The notes under the pieces: generated by a model
The model's input: only the letters and a program-made list of their open reading frames with translations
The model's database searches: none
What the model was told of the DNA's origin: nothing
NCBI GenBank assembly: GCA_050743905.1
Contig: JBOGGH010000001.1
Span: 1 to 33,430, forward strand
Direction of reading: 5' to 3'
Length of the DNA stretch: 33,430 nucleotides
Source of the DNA: Acidimicrobiales bacterium
GTDB taxonomy: Bacteria > Actinomycetota > Acidimicrobiia > Acidimicrobiales > RAAP-2
Shown here: piece after piece, positions 451 to 30,394 of the stretch
Numbering within the stretch: the first letter of the stretch is position 1
How the letters are laid out: each line of letters opens with the position of its first letter
Position numbers and translations under genes: made by a program

Positions 451-462
451 GGAGGGAGCCCA

Positions 463-2641: not shown

Positions 2642-2646
2642 TGCTG

Positions 2647-3920: not shown

Positions 3921-4068
3921 GGCCAGAATCCTTCCTCACTCAGAGACCGCCATCTCCCAGAGCACCGAGTAGGGGCAGTCGTCGCCGAGGTTTCTGTGGG
4001 GCAACCCGTAGCCCTGCTCCGCCACAGGGTAGGTGGGGGCCTGCTCGCACAGGCCGAATCGCAGCGGG

Positions 4069-4386: not shown

Positions 4387-4408
4387 CAGGCGCCCTCCTG
4401 TCCTCCAT

Positions 4409-4897: not shown

Positions 4898-4945
4898 GGT
4901 GCTCCACTGTCGTCGCTTGTGTAGGAGATTCCGCGGGGACCGGCC

Positions 4946-6885: not shown

Positions 6886-6985
6886 CGGTGCTCCCGTCCC
6901 TCGGCCCAGCGCAGCGACGCCACGACGGAGGCGTGGCGACACCGTGTAACGGTCGGGGCCGGGGCGGAGGGCGCTGCGGAACTTC

Positions 6986-7015
6986 GTGATCCGATATACG
7001 GATCACCTATCTTGC
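6986..7015 (+). other. candidate oriT (inverted repeat plus IncP-like nick motif)
   Basis: Perfect inverted repeat GTGATCCG (6986-6993), spacer ATATA, CGGATCAC (6999-7006). It is followed directly by CTATCTTG/C (7007-7015), one mismatch from the YATCCTG/Y nick consensus of IncP/MOBP-type oriTs. Located ~100 bp upstream of mobC. Confidence 0.45.
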
Positions 7016-7194
7016 TGCCGGGTGCCAGTAGCCCGGTTGTCGTCTCCGGGCTGCTTACTGCCCGGTACAGCTATGGCGTCCCGTGTGCCGCCATTCGCCG
7101 ACGGTCGGACGGCGGTAAGTCGCTTGCGATCCGATGAGGCCGAGGTCACACTGACGTACATCCGTTTGTCCGTTCAATGGCACAGGAGTGTGCG

Positions 7195-9051: not shown

Positions 9052-9362
9052 ATTTTCGGGAGCAGCACACGCCGCCACCTGGAGCCAGGTCATCCCGCAA
9101 GTGAATATGTCACTCACGAATACGACAGGGTGCCAGTCATCCAGGTTGCGGTACCACCGGCCTTCGTATGCTCCCATATACTCCCGGTGGCACAGGTCGT
9201 GTGTGCTGGCACTCACACCAGGTTCTTGGCCATCATCCGGGGCACGCGCGTCCGGGCCGGGGATCCTGGCCGCCTCCGGCGGCGGGGCTGGCCGGGCGGT
9301 GGGGCAGTGAGGGAGGGGGCCATCGGTGTCACGGCTGCCGGGGAGGTGGCAAACTAGGGAGC

Positions 9363-9572
9363 ATGAGCATCGGCGAGGAGCTGCTGGAAGAGCGCCGACG
9401 GCGCCGTCGGGCCGGCGATCCGCGGGTCACCGAAGCTGACCGCGAGATTTTCCGCCGGCTGACCACTGGGGACCTCGTGGATGAGTTCCAGGCAGCACTC
9501 GACGCGGTCAGTGCCGCGGACCCGTTGCTCGGTGGAGGCGATACTGACGCTGGTACCGACACCGACGACTGA
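9363..9572 (+). CDS. small acidic protein, antitoxin-like by position
   Basis: ATG 9363 follows an AGGGAG RBS. 69 aa; the stop lies 10 nt before the next start. No motif recognised. Confidence 0.4.
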   Translation: MSIGEELLEERRRRRRAGDPRVTEADREIFRRLTTGDLVDEFQAALDAVSAADPLLGGGDTDAGTDTDD

Positions 9573-9582
9573 CTGATCCACG

Positions 9583-9999
9583 GTGATCGTTATCGACGAG
9601 TACCTGGCGGTCCGCGTGACCGGCGGCAGGTGGCCGGCAGGACTCCCTGACGATGAGCTGGTGTTGCCGACCAGTCGCCATTGGCGGTTGCTCCAAGCGC
9701 TCCACGGCTCTCGGCGGGGGCGGTTGTCGGACATCCTCAGCGGGCTGCATCCATCCAGTCGTGAGAGCGTCCGCTATCCCCATCCCGAAGTGTTCGGAGT
9801 TCTCGACCCTCGTCCCCTCCTGGACGAGGCGGCTGTGATCGCCGCCCGCTACGGGGGGACCGGGTGGCTGATTGCCGAGACCCTGGCGGCGGGTCTGGCC
9901 TACGGGAACCGGTTGTGTTTCGGCTTGGAGGCCAACGTCGGCCGGGTGGTCAGCAGAGCCGCCGGTGAGCTTGGTATCGCTGTAGAGGTCATCGACTGA
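9583..9999 (+). CDS. PIN-like domain protein (possible toxin)
   Basis: GTG 9583. The N-terminus VIVIDEYL and LLDEAAVIAARYG..WLIAETLAAGL resemble a PIN/VapC-like fold, but the full acidic quartet is not evident by eye. Confidence 0.4.
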   Translation: MIVIDEYLAVRVTGGRWPAGLPDDELVLPTSRHWRLLQALHGSRRGRLSDILSGLHPSSRESVRYPHPEVFGVLDPRPLLDEAAVIAARYGGTGWLIAETLAAGLAYGNRLCFGLEANVGRVVSRAAGELGIAVEVID

Positions 10000-10154
10000 A
10001 GGCTGATCCACGCGTAGCGAGCCCGCTCTCCTGCGATCCTTGAAGCGACGGGTTCGGGTCATCGGTTACGCCGCTGGCGGGCGGCTGGCGTGAAGCCAGA
10101 CGTTCTGGCGAAGGCTGGGATCGCACCCACGAGGGTTGACGGCCCGACTCGTCG

Positions 10155-10406
10155 CTAGACGGTCGGGTCCCGGTGGGTGGCAAGGCCCCGGAGCAGGTCG
10201 TCCCACGGACAGTCCAGGGCTTCTTGGAGCGCGACGACCGTTTGCAGGTCGGTGATCCCGTCACCACGCTCGATCTTCCCGATGCGCTGCTCGGTCACGC
10301 CGAGCAGCCCGCCGAGCTGCGCCCGGGATAGTCGGCGTTCAACTCGTCTCACCCTGACCCGGTGACCGAACTCGACGGCAAGCGGGTGGCGGTCGCGCGG
10401 CGGCAT
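10155..10406 (-). CDS. XRE (Cro/C1) family HTH transcriptional regulator
   Basis: LSRAQLGGLLGVTEQRIGKIERGDGITDLQTVVALQEAL is a classic HTH_3 pattern. Divergent from an operator-containing intergenic region. Confidence 0.85.
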   Translation of the reverse strand: MPPRDRHPLAVEFGHRVRVRRVERRLSRAQLGGLLGVTEQRIGKIERGDGITDLQTVVALQEALDCPWDDLLRGLATHRDPTV

Positions 10407-10451
10407 GGCGCCACAAGTTCAGCCGAGTCTGGTGGAGGTTGCTATATCCCT

Positions 10452-10514
10452 AGAGCAATGTAAACTTGCTGTAACACGAGATTCTGATACTCTAGAGCAG
10501 TACACCAGTGCTCT
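10452..10514. promoter_or_regulatory. two related inverted-repeat operators in a divergent promoter region
   Basis: AGAGCA-N9-TGCTGT (10452-10472) and AGAGCA-N9-TGCTCT (10494-10514) have centres 42 bp apart. They sit in a comparatively AT-rich stretch between the XRE gene (start 10406) and ATG 10550. Confidence 0.5.
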
Positions 10515-10549
10515 GCGGGCATGGACCGTTGCGAGGGGAGGACAGAAGG

Positions 10550-11047
10550 ATGAGGCAGCGCTACACAGATCCCGGTACCGGAGGCGGTCGGTCGCCGGAT
10601 GAGACAGCTCGATCCCGGCCGGAGGGGGGACGACGCCCTGGCCCGACTGCCAAGCGCCGGCCCGGCAGTCGTGGCCGGGGCAGCCGCCGGCCCACAGGCC
10701 AGAGGGAGGCACTGGCCGTGCTCGCGTCGTACATCGCCGCCGATGGCACGCTCCGGGTACCCGCCCTGGCCGTCAGGGACGGCAGTGGTCGAGATCTCAT
10801 CACCCTGTCGGTCGTTGACGGCCGGGCCGAACTGAATCTTCGGTTGCCGCGGGCAGAGGGCGCCGAGCCCACTGGCGTCTCCCTCTTTGCCGACGATGGC
10901 CCGGCCGGGATGCCTGACGTCGAGCCGTCGGTGGGCATCGACCTGTCCGTCGTCGGGTCACAAGCCGCCTTGTTGGAGGTAGTGCCGGATCTGCGTGGCG
11001 GCTGGACGCTCACCCGCTCGACGCCGGAGCCTCCGCCCGGTGTCTAG
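10550..11047 (+). CDS. hypothetical protein (Arg/Gly/Pro-rich N-terminus, beta-rich C-terminal domain)
   Basis: ATG 10550 is preceded by GGGGAGGACAGAAGG. The track start 10508 would lie inside the second operator. No motif recognised. Confidence 0.5.
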   Translation: MRQRYTDPGTGGGRSPDETARSRPEGGRRPGPTAKRRPGSRGRGSRRPTGQREALAVLASYIAADGTLRVPALAVRDGSGRDLITLSVVDGRAELNLRLPRAEGAEPTGVSLFADDGPAGMPDVEPSVGIDLSVVGSQAALLEVVPDLRGGWTLTRSTPEPPPGV

Positions 11048-11276
11048 GTCGAGCGGGATCCCCGGTATCCTCCCTGCCGCGTTCGGGCGCGCCCTGCGGG
11101 CGCACCGGCTGCGCCTCGGGCTCAACCAGGTCGAGTTCGGCTTCTTGACCGGCTACCACTTCAGCTACGTCGGCGCCATCGAGCGCGGGGAGCGCAACAT
11201 CACCCTGGGGACGGCCGAGGAGATTGCCTTGCGCCTCGGGCTCGACCCGGTGTGGATGTTTGCCAGCGAGTCATGA
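11040..11276 (+). CDS. XRE family HTH transcriptional regulator
   Basis: LRAHRLRLGLNQVEFGFLTGYHFSYVGAIERGERNITLGTAEEIALRLG is an HTH_3 pattern. The start is uncertain; GTG 11040 overlaps the upstream stop (11045-11047). Confidence 0.7.
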   Translation: MSRSSGIPGILPAAFGRALRAHRLRLGLNQVEFGFLTGYHFSYVGAIERGERNITLGTAEEIALRLGLDPVWMFASES

Positions 11277-11395
11277 CCAACCGGACCCGGGTCAGGGTTC
11301 CCGTCAGGTGCGGTCACCCTACGATGGACCCTGGGGCACCGGGAGGCCCAGGCGCCAAGTCTTCTGTCGGCAGCACGTCGGTCTCCTGGCATACT

Positions 11396-11417
11396 CATTG
11401 GATACCCATTGGGTACC
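11396..11417. repeat. tandem 11-bp direct repeat containing a 13-bp palindrome
   Basis: CATTGGATACC (11396-11406) and CATTGGGTACC (11407-11417). The embedded palindrome TACCCATTGGGTA spans 11403-11415. Confidence 0.9.
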
Positions 11418-11461
11418 GATCGGAGTTTGTCGGATCGGCAGGTTTGTCGCCATCAACCTTC

Positions 11462-11497
11462 GAGGTGTGCAGAAGGGTGTGCACGAGGGTGTGCACC
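11462..11497. repeat. three tandem 12-bp repeats with core GGTGTGCA
   Basis: GAGGTGTGCAGA / AGGGTGTGCACG / AGGGTGTGCACC at 11462-11473, 11474-11485 and 11486-11497. They lie in a ~460-bp gap between convergent genes. Confidence 0.9.
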
Positions 11498-11735
11498 TAC
11501 ATAACGAGATCCCCGAGCAGGGGCATTGCGTCCAGATGGAGGACGGACTTGCGTGACCGACACTCCCCCCGCCACCAAGTACGGGCGTTTTTCGCGCCTT
11601 CTTGCGTATACACAGGCCGCTGACCAGCACGTTTCTTCCGTCGCGTTATGAGCCACCGCGCTAGATAAGAAGGCCATGCCGAGACGGCGCCCCGAGGGTA
11701 AGTGAGGCGGTATAAGAACGAGTCAGCCCGATGCT

Positions 11736-12569
11736 CTATAGGCAGTCGTAGCAAACGGTGAACAGATTGGATCGCACGTAGGCGCCTCCAGTGACGAGGA
11801 GCCGGACGGTCAGCTCCGCGGACGCGCCGTCGCAACGCATGCATCGTCGGCCGTCTCGGTCGATCACCGTGTAGAGCATCCGGTACCTGTGCGCCACCGG
11901 CACATCGGAGATCGTGTTGCCGGCGTGTCTTGCTTCTTGGCGGACATCGACTCCGAGTCCGTCACCCTTGCCGGCGTTGCAGAGGCGGCAGAGGAGTTGA
12001 AGGTTCTCGACGACGTTCGTTCCCAGACCACTGACTGCCTCGCGATGGTCGACCTCGATGCTCAGCAACTCCTCTGGAGACTCGAAATAGGGCTTGAAGG
12101 GGTCAGCGCTCAAGAGTGACGTAGGTGTGGTGCCGAACTCGACGTGACAGTTTTGGCAGTAGGGACCGTCGCGATGGAGCAGGAAGGCTCGATGACCCGT
12201 GACCTCGTCACGGGTGCGTTCCCAGTTGTCCAACAACGTTGCGATCTCGCGGGCCAACGGCTCGCACTCGCGGCGGTCGCGGTCGAAGCTGGAGACGAGG
12301 TGCTCGCGGATCAACCGCCACCTGGGCGAGGGGTTACTCCGTTCGTAGTTGATGGCAGAGAGCGGGGCTAGGTGAAGGGCGAGGCGCAGTCGCGTCTCGA
12401 AGCGACGGCGCACCCGTTCATCCTCATCGGATCGGAGGACAGAGGTGGCGCGCGAGAAGGCGAATGTTTCGTATTGGATCGATCGGGGGCTATCCTGCTC
12501 GGCGGCGGCGCCAATGACGAGGTGGTCGAGCAGGACATCGAGGGATCCCAAGATGTCCTGCTCGGTCAT
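11736..12569 (-). CDS. HNH endonuclease-domain protein
   Basis: CQNCHVEF ... IEVDHREAVSGLGTNVVENLQLLCRLCNAGKGD gives the CxxC, DH, N and CxxC elements of the HNH motif. ATG 12569 overlaps the upstream stop as ATGA (12566-12569). The N-terminal extension of track ORF 11736..12929 is rejected. Confidence 0.8.
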   Translation of the reverse strand: MTEQDILGSLDVLLDHLVIGAAAEQDSPRSIQYETFAFSRATSVLRSDEDERVRRRFETRLRLALHLAPLSAINYERSNPSPRWRLIREHLVSSFDRDRRECEPLAREIATLLDNWERTRDEVTGHRAFLLHRDGPYCQNCHVEFGTTPTSLLSADPFKPYFESPEELLSIEVDHREAVSGLGTNVVENLQLLCRLCNAGKGDGLGVDVRQEARHAGNTISDVPVAHRYRMLYTVIDRDGRRCMRCDGASAELTVRLLVTGGAYVRSNLFTVCYDCL

Positions 12570-13981
12570 GACTTCTTGAAGAGTTGCTGGTTGCCGAGGA
12601 ACTTGCCTTGATTGCGCACAGCGATCTCGATCTGCCCGCGGAGGAACGCGCGGCGGTCGGAGGTGTCGAGCTGCTTCTCCTGCCACTCCGTGGTGAAGAA
12701 CTCTGGTGGCAGGTCTGCGATCGACGCCATGACGTACTGCTTCAACTCGTCGAAGTCGGCGAACGGCGACGGCTTGCCTTCGACCTTCCGGACGTTCATC
12801 ACCTGGACGAGGAAGTCGAGGATAAATTCCTGGAGCACGAGCATGGCGGCCTTGTAGAAGAACTGATTCCCCCCTTCGGCGACACCCGCGGCCCACAGCT
12901 CGGCGTAGCGCTCTTTGATGGCTGACCAAAAGGCGTAGAAGTACGTGAGTCGTTCGTCACTTCCTTGCTGCCAGGCGGGGATATCGGCATAGAGGATCCG
13001 ATACTTCCTCGGCATGTTGACGAACTTCGAAACGATCTGGTAGCCGACGTTCTCCTTGATGAATCCTGACCCTCCGAGCCCGAAGTCGATGAGATCCTTG
13101 AATGGCGAGGTGGGATCGGTGTTGATTTTGTGAGTCCAGCGCGTGGCCTCGGGGTTCACGCCAGCGTTCTCGAAGCGCTTCCAAAGCTTGTCGATCTCGG
13201 CGTTCGAGAGCGAGGTGCTGATGGTGCGACGGAGTTCGGTGGGTGAGAGTGGCTTCGCCTTGTTGTTCAGGACGTAGAAGTGGAAGACCTGCTCGCCCAT
13301 TTCGAGTCCCGGGAGGAGGATCACTGGCAGTCTCACGTCGTGTTGAGAGACGTCTTTCGCTCCGAACACCCGGTGCTGTCCATCGATGATGAGCCCGGGC
13401 TTGGAGACCGAGTCGACGTAACCGCGGATGGCGGCCTGCCGCTTCGGCGTCAAGGAGTCGAAGTCCTCCACCGCCCTCGCGAGCTCAGCGGTGAGCGTCG
13501 CGATGTACGAGTCGGGTATGCCGCCGTTCTCCGTCTCCTCCTCGTCGGCCTCAAGCGACGTGGGGTCGACGTCGGTGTCGATACTCGCTCGTTCGGCGTC
13601 TGACAGGCGGGCCGTGAAGTACGCGTAGATATCGGCGAGGCGCTCCTCGAATGAGCGGCCTTCGACTCTGAGGGACACCCGGACGACATCGGGGTCTTCG
13701 GTGTCCTCGACTGAGACCGCGTCTGCAGTGGCGGTGACGATGACGGCACCGGGCACGATGTTCTTGGGGTCGGCGGCCAGGAACTCGCTGATCTCCTGAG
13801 CTCGGTCCTTGTTGAAGACCCGCTGGTAGCCCGCCATGTAGTCGGCCTTGGCGTTGGGTACGTCAGCCCATTCGAGAAGGTCGGGGGCATCGACCGTCAG
13901 GAGGTACATGGTGGGTGAACCGGGCTGCTGCTGAAGCACGAGTCCCGTATAGGTAAACCTGTCCGTCTCCTCGTCAGTCAT
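12566..13981 (-). CDS. DGQHR-domain protein (DndB/ParB-like superfamily), paralog C
   Basis: GLIIDGQHRVFGAKDV and FYVLNNKAKPLSPTEL are DGQHR-domain blocks. It also has MAGYQRVFNKDRAQEISEFL near the N-terminus. ATG 13981 is preceded by GAAAGG. Confidence 0.85.
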   Translation of the reverse strand: MTDEETDRFTYTGLVLQQQPGSPTMYLLTVDAPDLLEWADVPNAKADYMAGYQRVFNKDRAQEISEFLAADPKNIVPGAVIVTATADAVSVEDTEDPDVVRVSLRVEGRSFEERLADIYAYFTARLSDAERASIDTDVDPTSLEADEEETENGGIPDSYIATLTAELARAVEDFDSLTPKRQAAIRGYVDSVSKPGLIIDGQHRVFGAKDVSQHDVRLPVILLPGLEMGEQVFHFYVLNNKAKPLSPTELRRTISTSLSNAEIDKLWKRFENAGVNPEATRWTHKINTDPTSPFKDLIDFGLGGSGFIKENVGYQIVSKFVNMPRKYRILYADIPAWQQGSDERLTYFYAFWSAIKERYAELWAAGVAEGGNQFFYKAAMLVLQEFILDFLVQVMNVRKVEGKPSPFADFDELKQYVMASIADLPPEFFTTEWQEKQLDTSDRRAFLRGQIEIAVRNQGKFLGNQQLFKKS

Positions 13982-14101
13982 CGTGCGGGCCTTTCTCGTT
14001 GGATAAGAGGATAAGTGCTGGTCTTGAGGCTATTTTGGCAGGAGGCCGGAGTCCGGGCCTGGTTGGCTACACGAGGAGGGCCAGGCTGCAGCCCAGGCCC
14101 G

Positions 14102-14782
14102 TCACGAGCCGCCTCCCTCGATGAGGAACACCATGTCGATGACTTTGGCCCTCGGGTACCGGAGGCCGGTGAGGTGGTCGCTGGCGAAGTCAAGGGTTCG
14201 GACCCGCTCTCGGTCGATGGCACGCGCGTTCGCGCTGTAGAAGTTGGCGACGGCCAGCAGGGTGGGTACGTTCAGCCGAACCGGCTTGCCCGTTACCGAG
14301 CGGAGGCCTCGGCAGAAGAAGGTGTCGAATGCAGGGACCGAACCGAACACGCCCAGGATGACTTTGGTGACGAGGGTGTTCGTCGGGATCTTCGCCAGTT
14401 CGTCGCCGGACGGCTTGGCAGTGATGGCTGAGCGGATGCGTTCGATCAGGTCGAGGAGTGCGTCGATCGTGTGATCGTCGTACCGGTCGACGTCGATGTC
14501 CCAGATCGCCGCCGGCTCCGCCGCGATCGTCTTGATGACGGGGATGAAGAAGCGGTAGCTCTTGGTGTGGAGCACGGTGGAGCCGCGGAGCATTCCCCAG
14601 CTGGCCAGGTAGTAGCCGAGGTGGAGGCAGGAGGCTTCGAGGTTCTCTGGTTCGGCCAGGGTGGTGAGGTCGTGGGGTCGGTAGCTCTGGAAGTAGTTGA
14701 AGCAGTAGTCGAAGGAGGCCGCTCGCTCGTCTCGGCTTCGGTCCCGGAGATACGAGGCTACGTTGGCAGCGATGTCGACCAT
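14102..14782 (-). CDS. conserved-looking hypothetical protein (226 aa), family not recognised
   Basis: ATG 14782 lies 13 nt after the upstream stop (14796). Blocks FDYCFNYFQSY and LHLGYYLASWGMLRGS are present. Embedded in the dpd-like operon. Confidence 0.6.
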   Translation of the reverse strand: MVDIAANVASYLRDRSRDERAASFDYCFNYFQSYRPHDLTTLAEPENLEASCLHLGYYLASWGMLRGSTVLHTKSYRFFIPVIKTIAAEPAAIWDIDVDRYDDHTIDALLDLIERIRSAITAKPSGDELAKIPTNTLVTKVILGVFGSVPAFDTFFCRGLRSVTGKPVRLNVPTLLAVANFYSANARAIDRERVRTLDFASDHLTGLRYPRAKVIDMVFLIEGGGS

Positions 14783-14795
14783 GGCGATCTTGCCG

Positions 14796-16019
14796 TCAAC
14801 GCCGCCGGGAGGCGGCGTTTGATGTCGTCGGCTTGGATGCCCGCGGAGCTGGCTCGGGTGGTCCCCACGTGTGGGCCTTGTACTCGACGAGTAGGAAGTT
14901 CGTCAGGAGCTGGATGTCTCGCGGGGTGTTCTGCAGATCGTTCCAGCGGCGCTGATGATCGGACCCGAAGATCCACGATCCGCTCGTCCAGTGGCACACT
15001 GCAGCCATTCCCTCCAGTTCGGAGGTGAAGACCTTGAGCGTGGGGATACCGGTGCGTCGGTGTCGATCGACGATGGCGTCCATGACGAAGCCCATGCTGA
15101 CGATGCCGACGCCATGCATCAGTCTCGATCTGCGGGGTGGTTGGTTCCACGCATCGGGAAACGTGGCCTCGACGGCCGACCAGTAGCTCTTCAAGATGTT
15201 GAGCATGGCCTCGACATCGCCTTCTCCCGTCGCTGGGTCGCGGAAGTGGTAGAGGGCGCCGTCACTGAGACTGTTCTCAATCATGCGCAGGACTGAGTTG
15301 TCCTTGATCACTCCGTCGGGGTTGGTAGGGGTGTGGATCATGCGCTTTAGCGGGGAGTCGCGGTCGTAGTTCAACCGGTCGAGCAGGGCCGCCGGAAAGC
15401 GTCGGAGTTGCAAGGCCGGGGGGAGGGTGCCGGCCGTCGTCGGCAGAAGCTCGTGGATCAGGCCTTTCGGGAGCGGCTTCGTCGAGTTGACCAGGATGAA
15501 CTGGGAGCGCTGCTCTGCGTCGGAGTCGGTGATGAAGGCCGTAACGCAGATCGGGAAGGACTTCACGCGGGCTTCCCGAATCGCAGCGGAGCGCTGCTGG
15601 CCGTCCACTACCCAGCCGGGCTTGTCCTCGTCGGCGCAGTCGGGATCGACCGGGATCACCAGAGTGCCGGGGCAGACGTCGCCGTGTCTCGTTCCTGGCT
15701 CGGACCGCTCGAAGGTCACTCGTTTGTCGAAGGCGATGACCAGCGCGTTGGGGATCATGGGCTCGTCGGATTCGAGATACCGGCGGATCGACGCGATGTG
15801 CGACAGCACCTCCGGCCGCTGGTAGCCGGCGACCTCTGCTTCGCCGTTGCGGTGAATGCGTGAGACGGTGGCGAACAGGGGAAGTTGCTTGCCGTCCACA
15901 GCGAAGCTGTAGAGAGTGCGGGTCGGCCCTTGGTGCACCTCAAGCGCGGGCAGATGCAGTTCCTTCGCTGAGCGCGAGGCCCGGCTGAGTCGTTCCTGGC
16001 GGCGGGCGGTGGGGCTCAT
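14796..16019 (-). CDS. DGQHR-family protein with a DGQQR variant (DpdB/DndB-like), paralog B
   Basis: GWVVDGQQRSAAIREA, FILVNSTKPLPKGL and AGYQRPEVLSHIASIRRYLESD. ATG 16019 overlaps the dpdA stop as ATGA (16016-16019). Clearly paralogous to 17260..18396. Confidence 0.8.
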   Translation of the reverse strand: MSPTARRQERLSRASRSAKELHLPALEVHQGPTRTLYSFAVDGKQLPLFATVSRIHRNGEAEVAGYQRPEVLSHIASIRRYLESDEPMIPNALVIAFDKRVTFERSEPGTRHGDVCPGTLVIPVDPDCADEDKPGWVVDGQQRSAAIREARVKSFPICVTAFITDSDAEQRSQFILVNSTKPLPKGLIHELLPTTAGTLPPALQLRRFPAALLDRLNYDRDSPLKRMIHTPTNPDGVIKDNSVLRMIENSLSDGALYHFRDPATGEGDVEAMLNILKSYWSAVEATFPDAWNQPPRRSRLMHGVGIVSMGFVMDAIVDRHRRTGIPTLKVFTSELEGMAAVCHWTSGSWIFGSDHQRRWNDLQNTPRDIQLLTNFLLVEYKAHTWGPPEPAPRASKPTTSNAASRRR

Positions 16020-17263
16020 GCGGCGTTCAACTCTCGCTGGAGGCGCTGACCGAAGACGTAGAGGTTGTGGAACCCTCGGCGCTTGTTGCGCTCCGATCCT
16101 CGGAACATGGCCACGTCGATGCCTACTTCGCCGCAGATGCCACAGGAGCAGGCTTTCCACGGTCGATCTTCGAGGACCTCGCGGTAGGCGTCGCTGCGGT
16201 CCTTGCGACCTTCGTCGCAGAGCTCGTCATAGGACCGGAGCGCCTTGAGGACGGTTTGGGCTTTGACCTCGCCGGCGTCGTAGCGCCGCAGGGCAACGAG
16301 GCAGTCGCGCTCCAGTCTGATGGCGGTGTCTTGGCGTATCTGCCCAGCGCGGATGCGGCCGCGCAGCTTTGGGTTGCCGTCGACCTGCGGGACGCGCAGG
16401 GCGGTGTAGGTGCGGTCGAGCACGTAGTAGTTATCGGTGTCGTCTTTGAAGGACTGACGGAACGGTGACGTCGAGTCGAAGCTGGTCACCCCCGCCTTGG
16501 CGAAGAGGTCGACGTGCTCGCATCGGGTGATGCCGAGCAGGTGCAGTTGGGTGGCGCGCTTGCGTACCTTGTTGATCTGTTTCAGGCAGGCCATGATTTC
16601 GTGCGTCTTGAGGGGGACCATGCCACCCATGGCGATCCGGCGGAAGCCGATCTTTTGGAGCTCGTCGACGGCGAAGGTGTACGACGCCGGGCTCCAGCCC
16701 TGCGCCACCCCGAGCGGCTCGAACTGCACCTTCCGGGCTCGGCAGCGATCGAGGAACTGCGCAGCCAGGTCCAAGGTGAGCTGTTGGCGTCCACGCCACT
16801 CCTGGCTCTGAGGATGGTCGCTGTCGTCATCTGCGCTCGGGTCATAGCCCAAGATGACGTGATCGACGGAGATGCCGAGGTCGAAGCCGCACTCGTGGTA
16901 GAAGTCGATGGCGTCGTCGGGGCGGTAGGGCGGCTCGTCGTCGCGGACGTAGGAGAAGGCGCCGCAGTCGCCCATGGTGGCTAGGCGGGGGCCTTCCGTT
17001 TGGTCGAGTCGGAAGAAGTCTCTGATGCCCACTCGGTAGAGGCGTTGGCGTTGGGCGATCGTGTACTTTCCGGCCGAGTTCGGGAGCCCATCGACGATGG
17101 TCTTGGAGACCAAGAACCCGTCGAACGGCGGCGCCGTCAGTGCTTCGTGGGCGTAGCGGTCGTCGCGTTGGCGGACTCGGTAGATCGATCGTTGCTCGGT
17201 CGTGAAATCGAAGCTCGGATCGATCTGGTCCTGGCTGTCGGGGAAGAAGAACTGCATCTTCAT
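16016..17263 (-). CDS. dpdA: DpdA/TgtA5-type transglycosylase (7-deazaguanine DNA-insertion enzyme family)
   Basis: The N-terminus MKMQFFFPDSQDQIDPSFDF is as I recall for DpdA. TGT-type zinc motif CSCGIC...GFH near the C-terminus. ATG 17263 overlaps the upstream stop as ATGA (17260-17263). Sits in a preQ0-biosynthesis operon. Confidence 0.85.
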   Translation of the reverse strand: MKMQFFFPDSQDQIDPSFDFTTEQRSIYRVRQRDDRYAHEALTAPPFDGFLVSKTIVDGLPNSAGKYTIAQRQRLYRVGIRDFFRLDQTEGPRLATMGDCGAFSYVRDDEPPYRPDDAIDFYHECGFDLGISVDHVILGYDPSADDDSDHPQSQEWRGRQQLTLDLAAQFLDRCRARKVQFEPLGVAQGWSPASYTFAVDELQKIGFRRIAMGGMVPLKTHEIMACLKQINKVRKRATQLHLLGITRCEHVDLFAKAGVTSFDSTSPFRQSFKDDTDNYYVLDRTYTALRVPQVDGNPKLRGRIRAGQIRQDTAIRLERDCLVALRRYDAGEVKAQTVLKALRSYDELCDEGRKDRSDAYREVLEDRPWKACSCGICGEVGIDVAMFRGSERNKRRGFHNLYVFGQRLQRELNAA

Positions 17264-18396
17264 CGTTGTGCCGCCTTGGCTTGCACGTAGATCCGGATGA
17301 GGTAACTCGACAGTTCGTTGGTGTGTCGGGGCACGTTCTGGATGTCGTTCCAGCGCATGTCCAGCCCTTCCCACGTGCCGGCGGTCCAGTGGCAGTGGGG
17401 AGCGACGAGGGCCAGGTCTTCGAGGACTTGCTCGGCGGCGGCCTTGTTGCGGGGGTCGACGGTTGCCATGACGCGGTCCATGAGTCGCCCCATGGCCCGT
17501 ATGCCGGCGCCGTGCATGAGCCGGCTCTGGGTGGGTGGCTTTCCCCACGCTTCCGGAAAGGTGGCCTGGACCGCGGACCAGTAGACGACCAGGACTTGCC
17601 AGATACCGGCGAAGTCGGTCTCGCCGCTGGTCATGTTCCGGAACGGGAACAGGCAGCCTGATGGTGAGGTGAGGCTCTCTTCGAGCATCTTGACGATGCT
17701 CGTGTCGGTCACGACGGCTTGGCGGCGGAGATCCTTGTCGGTCGAGGACCGCTTGATTAGCCCTCGGAAGGGTGACTGCTCGTCAGAGTTGAAGAGGTCG
17801 CAGAGCGCGGAGGGCATGCGCCGAAGGGCCAGGCGCGCCGGGAGCGGGCTGCTGATCGTGGGCAGCAACTCAGTGACCAGTCCTCGGGGGAGGGGTTTCG
17901 CGTTGTTAATCCGCAGGAACTGGTCGCGCTGGATGTCGATCGAATCGGTTACGAAGGCATTCACGGGCACGCAGAGGTCCTGCCGCTTGGCGCGGGCGAG
18001 GGCGAGGGTCCGTTGCTGGCCGTCGACGATCCAGCCGGCCTTGGGTTCGCCGTTGAGCGGGAGCGGGATCTCAAGCTTGCCTTGGGCGGTCGCTCCGTCT
18101 CCGATCGTTGGGCCCCGGCCCGACGTGAATTTCACGGTCGAGGGGAGCGCAACGATGATGGGGTTCGGGAAGATCACCTGGTCGCCGTCGAGGTAGTCGA
18201 CGATCTCTTGGATGTGCTGGCGAACCTCGGGGCGCTGGTAGCCGATGAGGTCACCGCTTTGGTCCCGGCTTACTCGTGAGATGTCAGCGATCTGGAGGAT
18301 CTCTGATGCGGTCAGGCTGAAGAGGTAGAGAGGGCAGCCGGGTGTTTGCTCGATACGGAGCGCCCGGAGCGTCAGCGTCGCTGGCGGTTTGCTCAT
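17260..18396 (-). CDS. DGQHR-family protein with a DGQQR variant (DpdB/DndB-like), paralog A
   Basis: GWIVDGQQRTLALARA, FLRINNAKPLPRGL and IGYQRPEVRQHIQEIVDYLDGD. ATG 18396 overlaps the upstream stop as ATGA (18393-18396). Confidence 0.8.
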   Translation of the reverse strand: MSKPPATLTLRALRIEQTPGCPLYLFSLTASEILQIADISRVSRDQSGDLIGYQRPEVRQHIQEIVDYLDGDQVIFPNPIIVALPSTVKFTSGRGPTIGDGATAQGKLEIPLPLNGEPKAGWIVDGQQRTLALARAKRQDLCVPVNAFVTDSIDIQRDQFLRINNAKPLPRGLVTELLPTISSPLPARLALRRMPSALCDLFNSDEQSPFRGLIKRSSTDKDLRRQAVVTDTSIVKMLEESLTSPSGCLFPFRNMTSGETDFAGIWQVLVVYWSAVQATFPEAWGKPPTQSRLMHGAGIRAMGRLMDRVMATVDPRNKAAAEQVLEDLALVAPHCHWTAGTWEGLDMRWNDIQNVPRHTNELSSYLIRIYVQAKAAQR

Positions 18397-19343
18397 CGGG
18401 CCTCGATTGACTCGGCGCGAAACAGCGCGGCAAAGCGACTCTGCTCGCAGGCGAGATCGGAGTTCCGGAACTCGCGGAGCAACCGAGAATGGGTGGCGGT
18501 GTCGTCGGCACGCAGCCGCCGACGGATGAACGTTCGGACCTGGGCGTCGGAGGCAGGTCTCCGTTCGTAGCGGGGAACAGGTGGCTGCTCGGCTAGTAGG
18601 GCGGTCAGCGAGGCCTCCATGTCGGCATGGCTCGTGGCACCAGCAGCTAGGACGTGGGACACGGCTCGGACGTTGAGGGCCTGCCGAGTCCCGCCAACGA
18701 CATGCTGCAAGCGTGCGTCAACCGGCAGCAGGTACGGAGCGAGTTCGGCGTCACGTTTGGTGCCCGCCGAGACGACGCTGAACTGCCCGGGCCGCGCGGA
18801 GTCGGCCGCGCTGATGAGGTCGAGGCGACAGGCCCGCACATACGGGGCCGAGAGGGCGACGATCACACGCGACGAGGGATCGTCCTCGACGAGCGCGGCG
18901 AGCGACCGGGGCGCAGCGGCTGGGCCGTCCCAGCGTTGAAGGGCCGCCCACCATCGTGCAGCCCCCGCATTGCCGTCGGGGATGCTGTCGGGGCTGTCGG
19001 CGGAGAACGTCGCCGAGTAGGGCAGGAGTTCGGCAACGGCTGGAATGAGCCCGTATCCGGCGGAGCAGATCCACAACTCGACCGGTATGCCGACGACGTC
19101 CGAATCGCAAAGGTGGCGGGCCACCTCCCAGTGTTCACCGACGTAGAGCTCTACTGCGGAAACCGTAGGGGCGGAGTTGTGGTTCAGCCGGCGGACCCAC
19201 GTCTTCATCCTGGCTGAGGGAGTGAGGTGGTTGAGGACACGCAGATGCAGCGCGTCTGGGACCACCATCGACTTGCGATGGCTGCAGGTCACGACGACCC
19301 GTATCCGCTTCGGGCGACGACTGTCGGCGCGCTTTGCTACCAA
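18393..19343 (-). CDS. DUF6884-like domain protein (N-terminal) with an unassigned C-terminal half
   Basis: RIRVVVTCSHRKS, ELYVGEHWEVARHL and WICSAGYGLIPAVAELLPYSATF match my memory of the DUF6884 pattern (Cs..K / ELY.G..f / ilSA.yGL...PYd.t). The start is uncertain: TTG 19343 (overlaps the folE2 stop) or ATG 19268. The long track extension to 19790 is rejected. Confidence 0.5.
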   Translation of the reverse strand: MVAKRADSRRPKRIRVVVTCSHRKSMVVPDALHLRVLNHLTPSARMKTWVRRLNHNSAPTVSAVELYVGEHWEVARHLCDSDVVGIPVELWICSAGYGLIPAVAELLPYSATFSADSPDSIPDGNAGAARWWAALQRWDGPAAAPRSLAALVEDDPSSRVIVALSAPYVRACRLDLISAADSARPGQFSVVSAGTKRDAELAPYLLPVDARLQHVVGGTRQALNVRAVSHVLAAGATSHADMEASLTALLAEQPPVPRYERRPASDAQVRTFIRRRLRADDTATHSRLLREFRNSDLACEQSRFAALFRAESIEAR

Positions 19344-20152
19344 CGTGCCGCCTCCGGTTGTGATGGCGGCCACGCCAGCCGGGCGAAGGCGGCGTGGTTG
19401 TGGATGCTCTCGTCGTTGACTGCTTCGACCGAGAACCTGACGAGCCTCGGATCGTGGCGCAGGCCCTCCGCGACGCTTCGGACCATGTCCTCGACGAAGA
19501 CGGGGTGGTCGTAGGCGGCCATCGTGACGTGCCGCTCGTCGCCGCGCTTGAGGAGCGGGTACACGGGGCTCGATCCGGAGGCCTCGGCCGTCTCGATGAG
19601 ATCCTCCAACCACACGGAGTCGGCGTCGTCTGACCAGCTCGGGACGGCATGAATCGTCACGATGCCCCGCTGGTTGTGTGCCCCGTAATTGCTGATCGCC
19701 TTGCTGCACGGGCAGACGCTGGTCACCGGCACACTGGCCGAGATCGCGAACTCCACGCCGTCGTCGTTGATAGAGGCGTTGATCCCGCACGTGTAGTCGA
19801 CGAGCGCGCTAGCGCCGCTCACCGGGGCCGAGCGCCGCAGGAAGTATGGGAACCGCATGACGAGTCTGGCGCTGCGAGCGTCGAGTCGGTCTCGTAGGTG
19901 CTGGAGCACCGCCGGGATCGAGTGGGGAGTGAGCTCACCGGCGTGGGCGTCGAGGACCTCGACGAACCGGCTGAGGTGACTGCCCTTCTGCTCGGGCGGC
20001 AGCGATACGGAGAGGGAGATGTTGGCGACGGTGTCTTGCTTCCCCTGCTCGGCGTGGAAGACCGATACCGGGTAGCGCAGACCGCTGATGCCGACCTCGT
20101 CGATGCCGATACCGCGGATGTCTGGCTCGCTTTGCACGTCGGGAAGGGTCAC
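19337..20152 (-). CDS. folE2: GTP cyclohydrolase IB (FolE2/MptA type)
   Basis: [21 protein letters not shown] and [16 protein letters not shown] are FolE2 signature blocks. GTG 20152 overlaps the queD stop as GTGA (20149-20152). Confidence 0.85.
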
Positions 20153-20511
20153 GTGCCCTCTCCTCGGTAGGCGACGCCGGACGTGCACGTCTCACGCACG
20201 ACGACCTCCGCCAACTGGGGCAATGCCGTGATCAAGTGGTTCCAGACCCAGCGGGCCAGGTTCTCGCTGGTCGGGTTGTCGAGTCCTTCGACCTCGTTCA
20301 AGAAGTAGTGGTCGAGCCGATCGAGCAGCGGCGCGAACGCGGCCTTGATCTCGGCGAAGTCGATGACCATCCCAGTCGCCGGATCGATGTCACCTCGGAC
20401 CCGCACCTCCACCCGGAAGGAGTGCCCGTGGAGCCGGGAACACTTGTGGCCCTCGGGAACGTGAGGGAGGCGGTGCGCGGCCTCGAAGGTGAACTCGCGA
20501 AAGACATCCAT
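20149..20511 (-). CDS. queD: 6-carboxy-5,6,7,8-tetrahydropterin synthase
   Basis: [36 protein letters not shown] is a QueD/PTPS pattern. ATG 20511 shares one base with the queE stop. Confidence 0.9.
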
Positions 20512-21149
20512 CAGCGGATCCCCGTGTACTTGTGGGTCTGGAGACTGAGCCGCCATCTCGGGTGGGCCAAGCAGTACTCGATGGCGAGCGCGGTGTTCTT
20601 CTCTCGTTCCGGGCCGTCCATGGGTTGCAGCAGGAACCGTTCGAAGCCCAAGTGCTCGAAGATGTCGGGCGTGGCCGTCGCTTGAGGGAAGACCAGCTTG
20701 AGTTCGTGACCGTGATCGAGCACGAGCGGCGCGCCGGCCTTGGGGCTCACGCAGATCCAGTCGAGCCCTCGGGGAGCCGGCTGCGTGCCGTTGGTCTCGA
20801 CTCCGACCGCGAAGCCGACCTCATGGAGGGCGTCGACTGCGGCCTCGTCCAATTGCAGGAGGGGTTCGCCGCCGGTGCACACCACGTATGGCTGGGCCTC
20901 ACCGCCGACATCGCCAGCCCAGGCGGCGGCGACCGCGTGGGACAGGTCTTCGGGAGTTTTGAACCGCCCGCCGCCGGGGCCGTCAGTCCCGACGAAGTCG
21001 GTGTCGCAGAACTGGCAGATGGCCTTCGAACGTTGCGCCTCCCGGCCGGTCCACAGGTTGCAGCGGGAGAAGCGGCAGAAGACGGCGGGGCGGCCTACCT
21101 GAGCACCCTCACCTTGGAGGGTGTAGTAGATCTCCTTGACCAGGTACAT
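20511..21149 (-). CDS. queE: 7-carboxy-7-deazaguanine synthase (radical SAM)
   Basis: [42 protein letters not shown] carries a CX14CX2C cluster motif, as in the Burkholderia-type QueE. ATG 21149 shares one base with the queC stop. Confidence 0.9.
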
Positions 21150-21847
21150 CAGCCGCGGGTCGTGGCGAGCGCCGGGTCCTCCATCCCGACCTCAGCGAAG
21201 CCCTTCTGTCGGAGCAGGCACGAGTCGCAAGTCCCACACGGCCGACCGTCGCTGTCCGGGTCGTAGCAGCTGTGGGTCAGCCCGTAGTCGACCCCGAGTT
21301 CGACCCCGCGCTGGATGATCTGCGCCTTGGTCAGGTCGATCAGGGGGGTGTGGATCCGCAGGTGCTGGTGGCCCTCGACCCCTGCCTTGGTGGCCAGGTT
21401 GGCCATCGACTCATACGCCGCGATGTACTCGGGCCGGCAGTCGGGGTAGCCGGAGTAGTCGAGCGCGTTCACCCCGATGAAGATGTCGCTGGCTTCCAGC
21501 GTCTCCGCCCAGGCCAGAGCGAAGGACAGGAAGATCGTGTTGCGGGCCGGTACGTAGGTCACCGGGATCCCCTCATCGAGGTCGTCCACGCTCTGGTGGT
21601 GAGGGACGGCGATGTCTGCGGTCAGGGCTGATCCGCCGAATGCCCGAAGGTCAATGTCAGCCACGACGTGGCCGGCGGCCCCCATGGCGTCCGCTACCCG
21701 CCGCGCCGCCGCGAGCTCCACTTCGTGGCGCTGGCCGTAACGGAAGCTCAGCGCATATGGGCGGAAGCCCTCGTCCTTGGCGATGGCCAAGACGGTCGTT
21801 GAGTCAAGACCTCCACTGAGCAGGATCACCGCTGGTTGGTCGCTCAC
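21149..21847 (-). CDS. queC: 7-cyano-7-deazaguanine (preQ0) synthase
   Basis: PP-loop [11 protein letters not shown] and C-terminal zinc motif [23 protein letters not shown] 21847 is preferred because GGAGGAG lies 5-6 nt upstream; the track start GTG 21853 abuts the RBS. Confidence 0.9.
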
Positions 21848-21909
21848 GTCCACTCCTCCGATCTGGGTCGTTGGGGTCGACGTCCTACCTTTGCACCAGG
21901 GCGCAGGTC

Positions 21910-22308: not shown

Positions 22309-23457
22309 ATGTACACGATCGCTGTGACCGAGGGTCACCAAGGCAAGCACCGCTACTTCACCGGAAGCGTGCCCGTGGGTGAACTGGAGCACATCGTCAA
22401 GTTCCCCGAGGACCTCGGGGACCTCGATGAAGACGAGCAGATGCAGCGGAGCATCGCCCGGCGCCGGATCGGCGACCTCGTCGAGTACCTGACTACCGTG
22501 GACGACCACTTCTTCTCCGCCGTGACCCTTATGATCCTGCCTCGGTCGCTCGACCGGCCAGCGGTCCTCGGAGACCTGGGCGACGAGGAGGACGACGGGG
22601 AGTACGACTACGCCTTCGAGCGGGCCGAACGAGGCCGTCACCCCGGCAGGATCCGACAGGGCTGGCTCCACATGAGCGGCGACGTCATGTTGTTCCCCGC
22701 CGACGGCCAGCACCGTCTCTACGCCGAGTTCGATGCCATGAAAAGCGAACCCAGTCTCTCCAAGGAGGAGCTGCCCGTCGTCTTCTTGCCCTACGAGTCC
22801 GCCGACCAGGTCCGTCAACTCTTCTCGGACCTGAACCTCAACGCCAAGCCCATCAGCAAGACGCTTGCCCTTGGCTATGAGAGCCGGGACCCCATGGCAC
22901 TCCTGGCCAAGGCTGTTGCCCCCCGGGTATCGCTGTTCCGGGAGCGGCTCAACCTGCGGACCAACTCGCTGCCCAAGAGTTCGGCCAACGTCATCACCCT
23001 CAACACCTTGGTGCAGGGATGCCGGGATCTCGTCGAGGGCTTCGCCGGTGAGGACAAGAACGACCAACGGAGCTACCTGGCGCCCAAGCACTTCGACGAA
23101 GCGGTCGCCCAGATCACCGCCGCGTGGGAAGACATCATCGACCCCTTCTCTGAGCACTGGGATCGAGTCACCAGCGACGAGATCACGCCAGGCGACCTAC
23201 GTGACGAATACCTCTTCCCCCACGGCCTCGGATGGAGAGCTCTTTCCTCCGCTGCGGGAGAACTGATCGCCGCCGACCCCGACAACTGGGCGGCCAAGTT
23301 CGCCAGAGGCGTCGGCGCCTACAACTGGGCACGCACCGCCCCCGAGTGGGAAGGCAACGCCGTCATCCACGACCGCGACAAGGGCACCAACCGGGTCAAC
23401 AACACCGACCCCGGCGTCAACCAACTCAAAGAACTGATCCTCAAGGCCGCCGCGTAG
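22309..23457 (+). CDS. DndB-like DGQHR-domain protein, paralog D
   Basis: MLFPADGQHRLYAEF and FSDLNLNAKPISKT are DndB/DGQHR blocks. A strong RBS TAAGGAGGA precedes ATG 22309. Confidence 0.8.
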   Translation: MYTIAVTEGHQGKHRYFTGSVPVGELEHIVKFPEDLGDLDEDEQMQRSIARRRIGDLVEYLTTVDDHFFSAVTLMILPRSLDRPAVLGDLGDEEDDGEYDYAFERAERGRHPGRIRQGWLHMSGDVMLFPADGQHRLYAEFDAMKSEPSLSKEELPVVFLPYESADQVRQLFSDLNLNAKPISKTLALGYESRDPMALLAKAVAPRVSLFRERLNLRTNSLPKSSANVITLNTLVQGCRDLVEGFAGEDKNDQRSYLAPKHFDEAVAQITAAWEDIIDPFSEHWDRVTSDEITPGDLRDEYLFPHGLGWRALSSAAGELIAADPDNWAAKFARGVGAYNWARTAPEWEGNAVIHDRDKGTNRVNNTDPGVNQLKELILKAAA

Positions 23458-23495
23458 GCCTCGAGGCGCACGAAACGGATCGGAGATCAACGACA

Positions 23496-24800
23496 ATGAC
23501 CAGTACCCAGCTCCCCGCACAAGGCCTCGTCTTCTGGCCCGTCGGCACCGGCGACAGCACCACGGTTGTCATCGACGACGACCACGTCATCCAAGTCGAC
23601 ATCCACGACATGGCCATGGCCGATAACGACGGCGCCATCGTTGCCGCCGTGGTCGACCATCTCGTCGAGGTACTCCCCGAACGTGACGGGGCGCCGTACC
23701 TGGCCGCCTTCATCCTGACTCACGCCGACAAGGACCACTGCCTCGGGTTCGCCGACCTCCTCGACAAGGTGACCATCGGCGAACTATGGGCCACGCCACG
23801 CTTGTGGCGGGAGTACACGGACCACGACGTCGAACTCTGCGACGACGCCAAAGCATTCCATGAGGAAGTGCTCCGCCGGGTAGACGCCACCCTGGCCGCT
23901 GTCGCCGACGGCAAGGAACCCGCGTCGGGCAACCGGATTCGTGTCGTCGGATACGACACGGATCAGGACACGTTCTCCTACCACGACCTGCCCGCCGAAT
24001 ACCTCAGCCACCCGGGCGACGCCGTGGCGATCGTCGATGGAGAGGATGTCTCGGATCGCTTCGAGGCGTTCATCCACGCACCCTTCAAGGACGACTGCGC
24101 TGCTGAGCGGAACGACACCTCCCTGGCGATCCAAGTCACGCTCAAGACCGACGAGGGCGACGAGGGCCATGCGTTGCTGCTCGGAGATCTGGCCTACGAG
24201 ACGATCACGAAGATCTTCGATTACAGCGAGGACAACGACCGACCCGAACGGCTCACCTGGGAGGTCCTCCTCGCGCCCCACCACTGCTCCAAGAAGGTCA
24301 TGTACGTGACCGAGGACGGCACCGAGGTCCTCAAGCAAGATCTCCTCGACAAGCTCGAACGTCACGAGGCGGGCTCTGCAACCGTTGTCGTGAGCAGTGA
24401 CGAATTCCCCGACAGCAACAAGACGGGGGACAACCCACCTCACCTCTTGGCACAGGCCCGCTACGAGGAGATCGCGGACTCGCTCGTCTGCACTGGCGAA
24501 TACCCAGATGCGGACGCTCCGCGCCCGATCGTGTTCGGTATCGACGGTGATGGATTCTGCATCCTCGAGTTGGAAGAGGAAGCTGCTGAGGCCGTCACCA
24601 AGTCGGCCGATGCCCGCGGCGCACTCGTAGCCGGCGGCGTAGGGGTGCTCGCAGCCCTGCCTGCCACCTACATAGCGAGTCGCAGAAAGCGACAAACGAA
24701 GCCGCAAGGCGGCGGCCTCGAAGAGGTCCGCCGAGCTGTCACCACGGCAAGAGGCGACGAAGCGGCACCTCAACAACCGGTCGGCTTCGGCCAGCCATGA
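23496..24800 (+). CDS. metallo-beta-lactamase-fold protein (ComEC C-terminal-like), with a C-terminal hydrophobic segment
   Basis: GLVFWPVGTGDSTTVVIDDD, FILTHADKDHCLG (an HxDxDH variant of HxHxDH), LLLGDLAYE and LLAPHHCSKK parallel the ComEC-type MBL blocks. The tail has GALVAGGVGVLAALPATYIA followed by SRRKRQTK. ATG 23496 follows GGAGA; the track extension to 23232 is rejected. Confidence 0.8.
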   Translation: MTSTQLPAQGLVFWPVGTGDSTTVVIDDDHVIQVDIHDMAMADNDGAIVAAVVDHLVEVLPERDGAPYLAAFILTHADKDHCLGFADLLDKVTIGELWATPRLWREYTDHDVELCDDAKAFHEEVLRRVDATLAAVADGKEPASGNRIRVVGYDTDQDTFSYHDLPAEYLSHPGDAVAIVDGEDVSDRFEAFIHAPFKDDCAAERNDTSLAIQVTLKTDEGDEGHALLLGDLAYETITKIFDYSEDNDRPERLTWEVLLAPHHCSKKVMYVTEDGTEVLKQDLLDKLERHEAGSATVVVSSDEFPDSNKTGDNPPHLLAQARYEEIADSLVCTGEYPDADAPRPIVFGIDGDGFCILELEEEAAEAVTKSADARGALVAGGVGVLAALPATYIASRRKRQTKPQGGGLEEVRRAVTTARGDEAAPQQPVGFGQP

Positions 24801-28476: not shown

Positions 28477-28539
28477 CTCGTCGTCTCACGCGCGGGTCCA
28501 CATTTCGCGTAGCGCCGAGGTCAGGGAAGTAGCGGCTGG

Positions 28540-29184: not shown

Positions 29185-29236
29185 GGGAGATAGCTTGCCG
29201 CCCAGTGCTCCTGGAAGGCCGCATCCGTAGTCGGCG

Positions 29237-29743: not shown

Positions 29744-29752
29744 TCGGGCCAG

Positions 29753-30349: not shown

Positions 30350-30394
30350 GCTCCCGCTACGGACCCGACCACGACCCCGTTCGACGATCCCCAG

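Follow-up and report, generated by a model that had tools for sequence, protein, structure and literature searches.

The question raised by the que-dpd operon of an Acidimicrobiales bacterium (GenBank assembly GCA_050743905.1, contig JBOGGH010000001.1, positions 1 to 33,430; this whole stretch of 33,430 nucleotides is referred to as the window) is which of its genes could couple a 7-deazaguanine mark in DNA to restriction. In 2016 it was described as an open question which Dpd protein recognises the mark and cleaves DNA that lacks it (PMC5699537), and in 2023 the DpdD-K machinery was still called the largest and most complex restriction-modification system known, with its rationale unexplained (PMC10164549). 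The operon analysed here represents a known system, Dpd, in a widespread variant with a non-canonical candidate restriction module, a gene pair encoding a divergent protein of the DGQHR/DndB superfamily (ParB-like NTPase; referred to as DGQHR3) and an HNH endonuclease. The favoured reading, with a probability of roughly 0.55, is that of a Dpd system of the "two-DpdB" lineage which uses the DGQHR3-HNH pair as a modular restriction effector and is located on the defence island of a mobilisable element. A first-pass annotation of the sequence had presented the operon as Dpd-like but atypical, with every known DpdC-K partner missing; this overstated the case, as DpdC and DpdB are present, while the remaining point, a non-canonical candidate restriction module, holds and extends to other loci.

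The que-dpd operon and its modification module

The open reading frame (ORF) listing and start-codon analysis delineate eleven tightly packed co-directional genes on the minus strand, from 21853 (or 21847) to 11736. Start codons were chosen with the help of ribosome-binding sites and of gene lengths in the syntenic locus L111, and with the most likely starts eight of the ten junctions overlap by 1 to 7 nt, in agreement with the first-pass annotation; gaps are found on either side of an ORF of 226 amino acids (U226), 13 nt at the junction with dpdB2 and 119 nt at the junction with the gene encoding DGQHR3. The G+C content of the window is 61-74%, and a promoter and terminator scan of the operon was uninformative in this high-GC DNA. 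No plasmid matched the operon in a megablast search.

The first four genes encode a complete route from GTP to preQ0 (7-cyano-7-deazaguanine), as had been proposed, and all four products score above the NCBIfam cut-offs. These are the preQ0 synthase QueC (21149..21853, minus strand; TIGR00364, 206 bits, cut-off 150; PF06508, 252 bits), with a likely GTG start at 21847 preceded by GGAGGA 6 nt upstream; QueE, a radical-SAM 7-carboxy-7-deazaguanine synthase of the Cx14CxxC type (20511..21149, minus; TIGR04508, 345 bits, cut-off 240), the gene of which overlaps queC by 1 nt; the 6-carboxytetrahydropterin synthase QueD (20149..20511, minus; TIGR03367, 110 bits, cut-off 89; PF01242); and the GTP cyclohydrolase IB FolE2 (19337..20152, minus; NF010200, 260 bits, cut-off 215; PF02649, 294 bits). 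The ORF of queD reaches 20556, and a start at ATG 20511 gives a protein of 120 amino acids and the 1-nt overlap, both as in L111; the ORF of folE2 reaches 20188, with GTG 20152 as the likely start. QueF was not detected within the window, as noted in the first-pass annotation.

Regarding the modification enzymes, the DNA-guanine transglycosylase DpdA (16016..17263, minus; NF041059, 585 bits, cut-off 200; PADLOC DpdA, 2.5e-179) aligns end to end over 411 residues with DpdA of Salmonella Montevideo (PDB 7UI4; 2e-122). Its N-terminus is MKMQFFFPDSQD, and its CxCxxC...H zinc motif aligns to that of 7UI4, which bears out the earlier identification of a transglycosylase with a DpdA-type N-terminus and the zinc motif of tRNA-guanine transglycosylases (TGT). 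The motifs MGDCGAF, SVDH, TSFDST and CSCGIC...H line up with catalytic and zinc residues of 7UI4, and D95, F99, D130, G206/G207, D256 and the zinc site are kept. In the Salmonella enzyme Asp95 is the acid/base and Asp256 the nucleophile, and both are experimentally essential; the biochemistry of DpdA, DpdB and DpdC has been established in the same work (PMC10164549). The residue corresponding to H181 of Salmonella DpdA, which contacts the base, is Gln in the window (motif GVAQGW), as in every dpdB-dpdA-dpdB locus with a readable motif, and likewise in the cyanobacterial locus L119, which has a separate DndB; His is found in the single-DpdB loci L004, L032 and L117 (Enterobacter). Gln is the residue of bacterial TGTs at the equivalent position. 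The identity of this residue may be a lineage marker.

Two ParB-like ATPases with a DGQQR motif are encoded on either side of dpdA, DpdB1 between dpdC and dpdA (17260..18396, minus; NF041060, 430 bits; PADLOC DpdB, 5.8e-144) and DpdB2 downstream (14796..16019, minus; NF041060, 507 bits), with dpdB2 overlapping dpdA by 4 nt. Thus, the four preQ0 enzymes, DpdA and both DpdB copies all pass curated NCBIfam equivalog cut-offs (300 bits for DpdB). The canonical Enterobacter island has a single DpdB that is 52% identical to DpdB2 and 36% to DpdB1, so DpdB2 is the canonical orthologue and DpdB1 the extra paralogue. The first-pass annotation was right about the DGQQR motif of these two proteins and wrong to present them as non-canonical, and its "DUF6884-like" protein is DpdC (18393..19343, minus; start TTG 19343 or GTG 19292), the predicted enzyme for conversion of 2'-deoxy-preQ0 (dPreQ0) to dADG (2'-deoxy-7-amido-7-deazaguanosine) in DNA. 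DpdC gave no match in Pfam or NCBIfam; the PADLOC DpdC profile PDLC02817 matches it at 1e-71 over profile positions 2-292 of 299, and tblastn with the gene that holds the dpdC position in the canonical Enterobacter cloacae island pPOL9A gave 3e-26. That annotation had named recognition of ordinary homologues by hidden Markov models (HMMs) as an outcome that would refute it, and this is the outcome for three of the six genes that it had considered unusual.

The DpdA/B/C module and the GTP-to-preQ0 pathway are, as judged from sequence, complete and orthodox, and the family models support the proposal that these genes form a Dpd-type operon for 7-deazaguanine DNA modification which includes its own route to preQ0. 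By homology, FolE2, QueD, QueE and QueC would make preQ0 from GTP, DpdA powered by DpdB would swap specific guanines in duplex DNA for preQ0, and DpdC would hydrolyse the nitrile to give dADG; the two DpdB paralogues flanking dpdA may act as a heterodimer.

Restriction genes and the distribution of the DGQHR3-HNH pair

None of the genes dpdD to dpdK was detected in the 33-kb window with the NCBIfam, PADLOC and Pfam models on large ORFs, which for DpdE and DpdF are the only basis of the statement. Nor did tblastn searches of the window give a match at E<=0.01, either with Enterobacter DpdD, DpdG, DpdH, DpdJ, DpdK and the gene in the position of dpdI or with the DpdD, PLD and DEAD proteins of Streptomyces. 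The first-pass annotation was correct in reporting that helicase, PLD and DpdD restriction genes are absent from the window and that a DGQHR-HNH pair and an unassigned gene for a 226-amino-acid protein stand in their place.

The pair forms the tail of the operon. DGQHR3 (12566..13981, minus; TIGR03187, 79 bits, cut-off 59) carries a DGQHR motif and matches a ParB PHROG, and scores only 63 bits against the DpdB equivalog model (cut-off 300) and 27.4 against the DndB Pfam model PF14072, below the gathering score of 29.1. No match to the DndB equivalog TIGR03233 was found, and the window contains no dnd genes; DGQHR3 thus falls outside DndB. It also lacks a match to PF03235 (DUF262) and an EHxxP motif in its C-terminal domain. 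DGQHR3 belongs to a full-length family of its own with at least 247 proteins, and an HMM of this family separates third-DGQHR proteins (89-781 bits) from DpdB1 and DpdB2 (<=59 bits). A profile search of PDB sequences with DGQHR3 found nothing.

The adjoining gene encodes an HNH endonuclease of 277 amino acids (11736..12569, minus; PF01844, 4.8e-9, 36.7 bits, gathering 21.4), whose beta-beta-alpha-Me motif has its catalytic His and Asn and its CxxC...CxxC zinc site intact, as expected of PF01844, and which has no match to PF07510 (DUF1524). The motifs CxxC...D..KP...E-DH...N-Q-LCR-CN-GK and a C-terminal Cys4 (C..C...C..C) are conserved in an alignment of 21 homologues. The start codon of the HNH gene overlaps the stop codon of the DGQHR3 gene (ATGA), and the genes are translationally coupled. 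The same pair, with 96-97% amino-acid identity, is present on a 3.7-kb contig of an Acidimicrobiales metagenome-assembled genome (L001, JAVKSL010000151.1), which is the closest named relative and agrees with a likely origin of the window in that order.

Genome and metagenome collections were searched with the DGQHR3 alignment and the contigs of individual family members were looked up; dpd genes were not used as bait. The two genes lie side by side in about 30 loci, which belong to the Actinomycetota, the Alpha-, Beta- and Gammaproteobacteria and the Myxococcota. In essentially all recovered loci, from at least five major lineages, the DGQHR3-family gene has a neighbour for an HNH protein of 260-300 amino acids. 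An HNH gene adjoins every recovered DGQHR3 orthologue with downstream sequence, and the distant third-DGQHR proteins of Alpha-, Beta- and Gammaproteobacteria and Polyangiales have an HNH neighbour of 260-300 amino acids, in either gene order. Nearly every pair locus with usable flank has dpd genes within 10 kb, mostly immediately adjacent, and the commonest context is dpdC-dpdB-dpdA-dpdB with que genes. An apparent exception is Solirubrobacter soli (L002), where no dpdA was found within 10 kb, but a DpdH-like gene is located upstream. The architecture is not unique to the window; dpdC-dpdB-dpdA-dpdB with DGQHR-HNH recurs widely, often together with DpdD, DpdJ or DpdK. In L005, L023, L028, L036, L009, L017 and L118, DpdD, PLD or a DEAD helicase of about 1500 amino acids is present as well, or instead. 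The pair is divergent or convergent to the dpd operon in L003, L025, L029 and L030.

The dpdB-dpdA-dpdB operons L112, L113 and L114 occur without the pair, and the pair is therefore not needed for the modification chemistry. Among the closest operons, those that share U226, the pair is missing from L112 and L113, which carry DpdD/PLD or a helicase instead, and the window and L111 have the pair and no DpdD-K (in L111, within the stretch read). In L114, on a contig of 1.5 Mb, a convergent RelA/SpoT-like nucleotidyltransferase gene and a gene for a DndB-family protein of 418 amino acids (6836-8966) lie behind dpdC-dpdB-dpdA-dpdB-U226, in the position held by DGQHR3-HNH in the window, which suggests interchangeable effectors attached to DndB-like sensors. 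The pair was disrupted independently twice among about 30 loci: in Mycolicibacterium mucogenicum (L029, 11422-13578) an insertion sequence (IS) of the rve type interrupts the HNH gene, and on an Agrobacterium vitis plasmid (L118, 20024-23036) the DGQHR gene is separated from the HNH gene by an IS5 element.

A fourth DndB-family gene (456 amino acids) and a gene for a protein of 146 amino acids are located between queC and the DGQHR3-HNH pair in L025 (7770-9608), the DGQHR3 of which is 83% identical to that of the window. A fragment 46% identical to this 456-amino-acid protein precedes DGQHR3 in L034 (2-409). The protein is unrelated to a DndB-like protein of 382 amino acids encoded in the window.

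Regarding U226 (14102..14782, minus), which is specific to one clade and sits in the tail of the que-dpd operon, homologues with 57-80% identity were found by exact-context look-ups directly behind dpdB2 in four other operons (L111-L114), and tblastn against the first 44 loci gave nothing. No match was detected in Pfam, NCBIfam, PADLOC or PHROGs. The family comprises 1872 representative clusters at E<=1e-3, with uninformative source names ("hypothetical"), and a 50%-identical member is located in a non-dpd, defence-like context. The AlphaFold2 (AF2) model, with a predicted local distance difference test (pLDDT) score of 95, is mainly alpha-helical and has no significant Foldseek match in PDB or BFVD. 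An assignment as an HhH-GPD glycosylase was considered and found no support: the Foldseek matches to such proteins are recurrent but weak (E 0.7-8, template modelling score 0.2-0.33), hhalign against E. coli Nth and an OGG protein gave a probability of 0.2, and a PDB profile search was negative. Some family members (P0311, P0332, P0399) have an N-terminal winged-helix-type extension (DUF7669) or a C-terminal DUF7662, and source names among the winged-helix-extended relatives include 'HxlR family' and 'biotin operon repressor', all of which hints at a DNA-associated or ligand-sensing role. U226 would be a lineage-specific accessory of the operon.

Possible functions of the pair

That the pair is a Dpd-linked restriction effector which reads 7-deazaguanine status is given about an even chance, and this function is favoured because of the modular patterns of the loci and a domain logic resembling that of SspE and GmrSD. 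The exchange of effectors, the IS splits and the loci without the pair fit a modular defence effector, and the pair is the only nuclease candidate in the island, as it is in several mycobacterial loci. DGQHR3 would load on or scan DNA, read its 7-deazaguanine status and control the co-translated HNH nuclease, which would nick or cut unmarked foreign DNA. In this island the pair occupies the place that DpdD-K have in canonical islands. It would work like SspE or GmrSD/BrxU, which couple a ParB-like NTPase domain with a DGQQR motif to an HNH-like nuclease and in which the modification state of DNA gates the nuclease (PMC10164549; PMC4619093). Of these, SspE is discussed as a precedent of a ParB-type NTPase with a nuclease (PMC10164549), and fusions of a ParB fold with HNH have been reported and listed as unexplored (PMC12704722).

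Several points weigh against an effector role. DndB, the best-studied relative of DGQHR3, represses transcription and has no part in restriction. The AF2 model of DGQHR3 (pLDDT 82) has no significant structural neighbour in the PDB by Foldseek (no match at E<=0.001, with ParB 6SDK only at rank 39), and whether marked or unmarked DNA would be sensed is purely conjectural. As a linear contig without terminal overlap, the window cannot be shown to be circular, and DpdD-K could therefore lie elsewhere in the genome. In many loci (L005, L023, L028, L036, L009, L017, L118) the pair co-exists with DpdD, DpdJ or DpdK, and instead of being the restriction enzyme it may thus have an auxiliary, back-up or regulatory role.

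A stronger form of the effector reading, in which the pair would be a self-sufficient restriction module with an NTPase that senses dADG or dPreQ0 marks, in the way that SspE senses phosphorothioate, and licenses the HNH nuclease against unmarked DNA, is put forward tentatively, as somewhat less likely than not. If true, the eleven-gene operon would be the smallest complete Dpd restriction-modification system and the pair would include the first identified reader of the 7-deazaguanine mark in DNA.

Less probable, at perhaps one chance in a handful, is a regulatory function, with DGQHR3 as a DndB-like regulator of dpd expression or of the extent of modification, HNH as an accessory nicking factor, and the operon as an orphan, modification-only module that protects the mobile element. 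DGQHR3 does belong to the DGQHR/DndB superfamily, in which DndB represses dnd in a manner modulated by ATP (PMC4507180; summarised in PMC12704722), divergent or convergent orientation of the pair to the dpd operon is frequent, as in the four loci named above, and there are known Dpd islands that lack restriction genes (PMC12235509). A regulator of this kind would leave unexplained why it has an obligatory, translationally coupled HNH partner with catalytic residues intact across phyla; furthermore, the dpdB-dpdA-dpdB operons L112-L114 function as units without the pair, and the pair is split by IS elements in two loci.

The pair is still less likely to be a separate modification-dependent nuclease of the Type IV, GmrSD-like kind that is directed against foreign DNA with heavy substitution by 7-deazaguanines or other hypermodified bases and merely travels with dpd. 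A ParB-like NTPase with an HNH nuclease matches the Type IV logic of GmrSD/BrxU (PMC4619093), the window is a dense defence island, and phages evade restriction with 2'-deoxyarchaeosine (dG+) and dPreQ0 (PMC6884629), but the linkage to dpd is far tighter than co-location in defence islands would give, host DNA would itself carry dADG and dPreQ0, and neither a DUF262 nor a DUF1524 signature was found. An atypical system without DpdC-K, the chemistry or end product of which would differ from that of published Dpd, and to which the absence of DpdD-K and the Gln in place of H181 in DpdA might point, is highly improbable, as family models recognise both DpdC and DpdB in the operon, the Gln is common to all readable dpdB-dpdA-dpdB loci, and there is no sign of a different product.

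Regarding novelty, the DGQHR-HNH pair was not found to be described as a conserved component of Dpd in the searchable literature, which does not cover the supplementary gene-neighbourhood tables of earlier surveys; one paper mentions in passing that there are Dpd islands without a restriction operon, additional copies of dpdB (n = 801) and, in part of the flanks, HNH genes (PMC12235509). PADLOC, DefenseFinder and PGAP leave the pair unnamed, with PGAP using "hypothetical", "DGQHR domain-containing protein" and "HNH endonuclease" for such proteins, and islands of this type would score as incomplete Dpd. As a candidate effector of two genes, a ParB-like NTPase and an HNH nuclease, that travels with dpd operons across phyla, the pair offers a much simpler experimental handle on the sensing of 7-deazaguanine marks. 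If the effector role is correct, the "ParB-NTPase switch plus nuclease" design of SspE and GmrSD extends to a third kind of DNA mark.

Genomic surroundings and comparison with known systems

In the rest of the window (1-11700 and 28500-33430), a mobilisable element carries further genes of a defence island. These encode a SIR2-like protein (1091-2641), a TIR protein (2667-3920), a MobA/VirD2 relaxase (4946-6469), NikA/MobC (6466-6942) and an OLD/AriA/GajA-like ATPase (7177-9051) on one side, and DUF6308 (28540-29184) and a caspase-like protein (30706-31638), with an unassigned ORF of 578 amino acids behind it, on the other. Divergent from queC, a four-gene operon on the plus strand (22309-28476) encodes a DndB-family protein (PF14072, 199 bits), a 6A-MBL protein with a metallo-beta-lactamase (MBL) fold (NF058524), a Cap2_3 E2-E1-JAB fusion (NF058523) and a patatin-like phospholipase. 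The dpd operon of L111 is flanked by the same DndB-like gene and then by a gene for a 434-amino-acid protein at the MBL position, with no Pfam match on record; the DndB-like gene of the window may belong to 6A-MBL or to Dpd.

Compared with the dpdA-K islands of Salmonella Montevideo and other Enterobacterales, the window has a DpdA that is about 49-55% identical with catalytic residues kept, a DpdB (dpdB2, 52%), DpdC, the preQ0 precursor, the predicted products dPreQ0 and dADG and a location on a mobile defence island in common. It differs in the second DpdB paralogue between dpdC and dpdA, the inclusion of the full preQ0 pathway in the operon, the lack of DpdD-K, the addition of the DGQHR-HNH pair and the U226 gene, and the change of H181 to Gln in DpdA.

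The window also resembles the two-DpdB islands of Actinomycetota, Proteobacteria and Myxococcota, such as those of Prescottella equi, Mycolicibacterium mucogenicum, Bradyrhizobium pB41S5 and an Agrobacterium vitis plasmid, which share the dpdC-dpdB-dpdA-dpdB core with que genes and a DGQHR3-family gene paired with an HNH gene. Many of these also have DpdD, PLD or a large DEAD helicase, however, and most lack the U226 gene; the pair is usually a separate transcription unit, often in the opposite direction, whereas it is the operon tail in the window.

DndB of Dnd systems is a member of the same DGQHR/ParB-like superfamily and is likewise encoded beside a DNA-modification operon. In contrast to DndB, which has no such partner, DGQHR3 has an obligatory HNH partner, and it is distinguished further by its score below the DndB Pfam threshold, the lack of a DndB equivalog match and the absence of dndACDE genes.

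SspE (of SspABCD-SspE) and GmrSD/BrxU resemble the pair in coupling an HNH-type nuclease to a ParB-like NTPase that carries the motif DGQ(Q/H)R. By profile matches the pair is placed outside the SspE/GmrSD family, as it consists of two genes without DUF262 or DUF1524 matches, unlike the single polypeptides (DUF262 and DUF1524) of those systems, and combines an NTPase of the DndB/DGQHR type (PF14072/TIGR03187) with a classical PF01844 HNH nuclease. Gating of the nuclease by the modification state of DNA, known for SspE and GmrSD/BrxU, is what is proposed for the pair, and the mark would be 7-deazaguanine instead of phosphorothioate or glucosyl-hydroxymethylcytosine.

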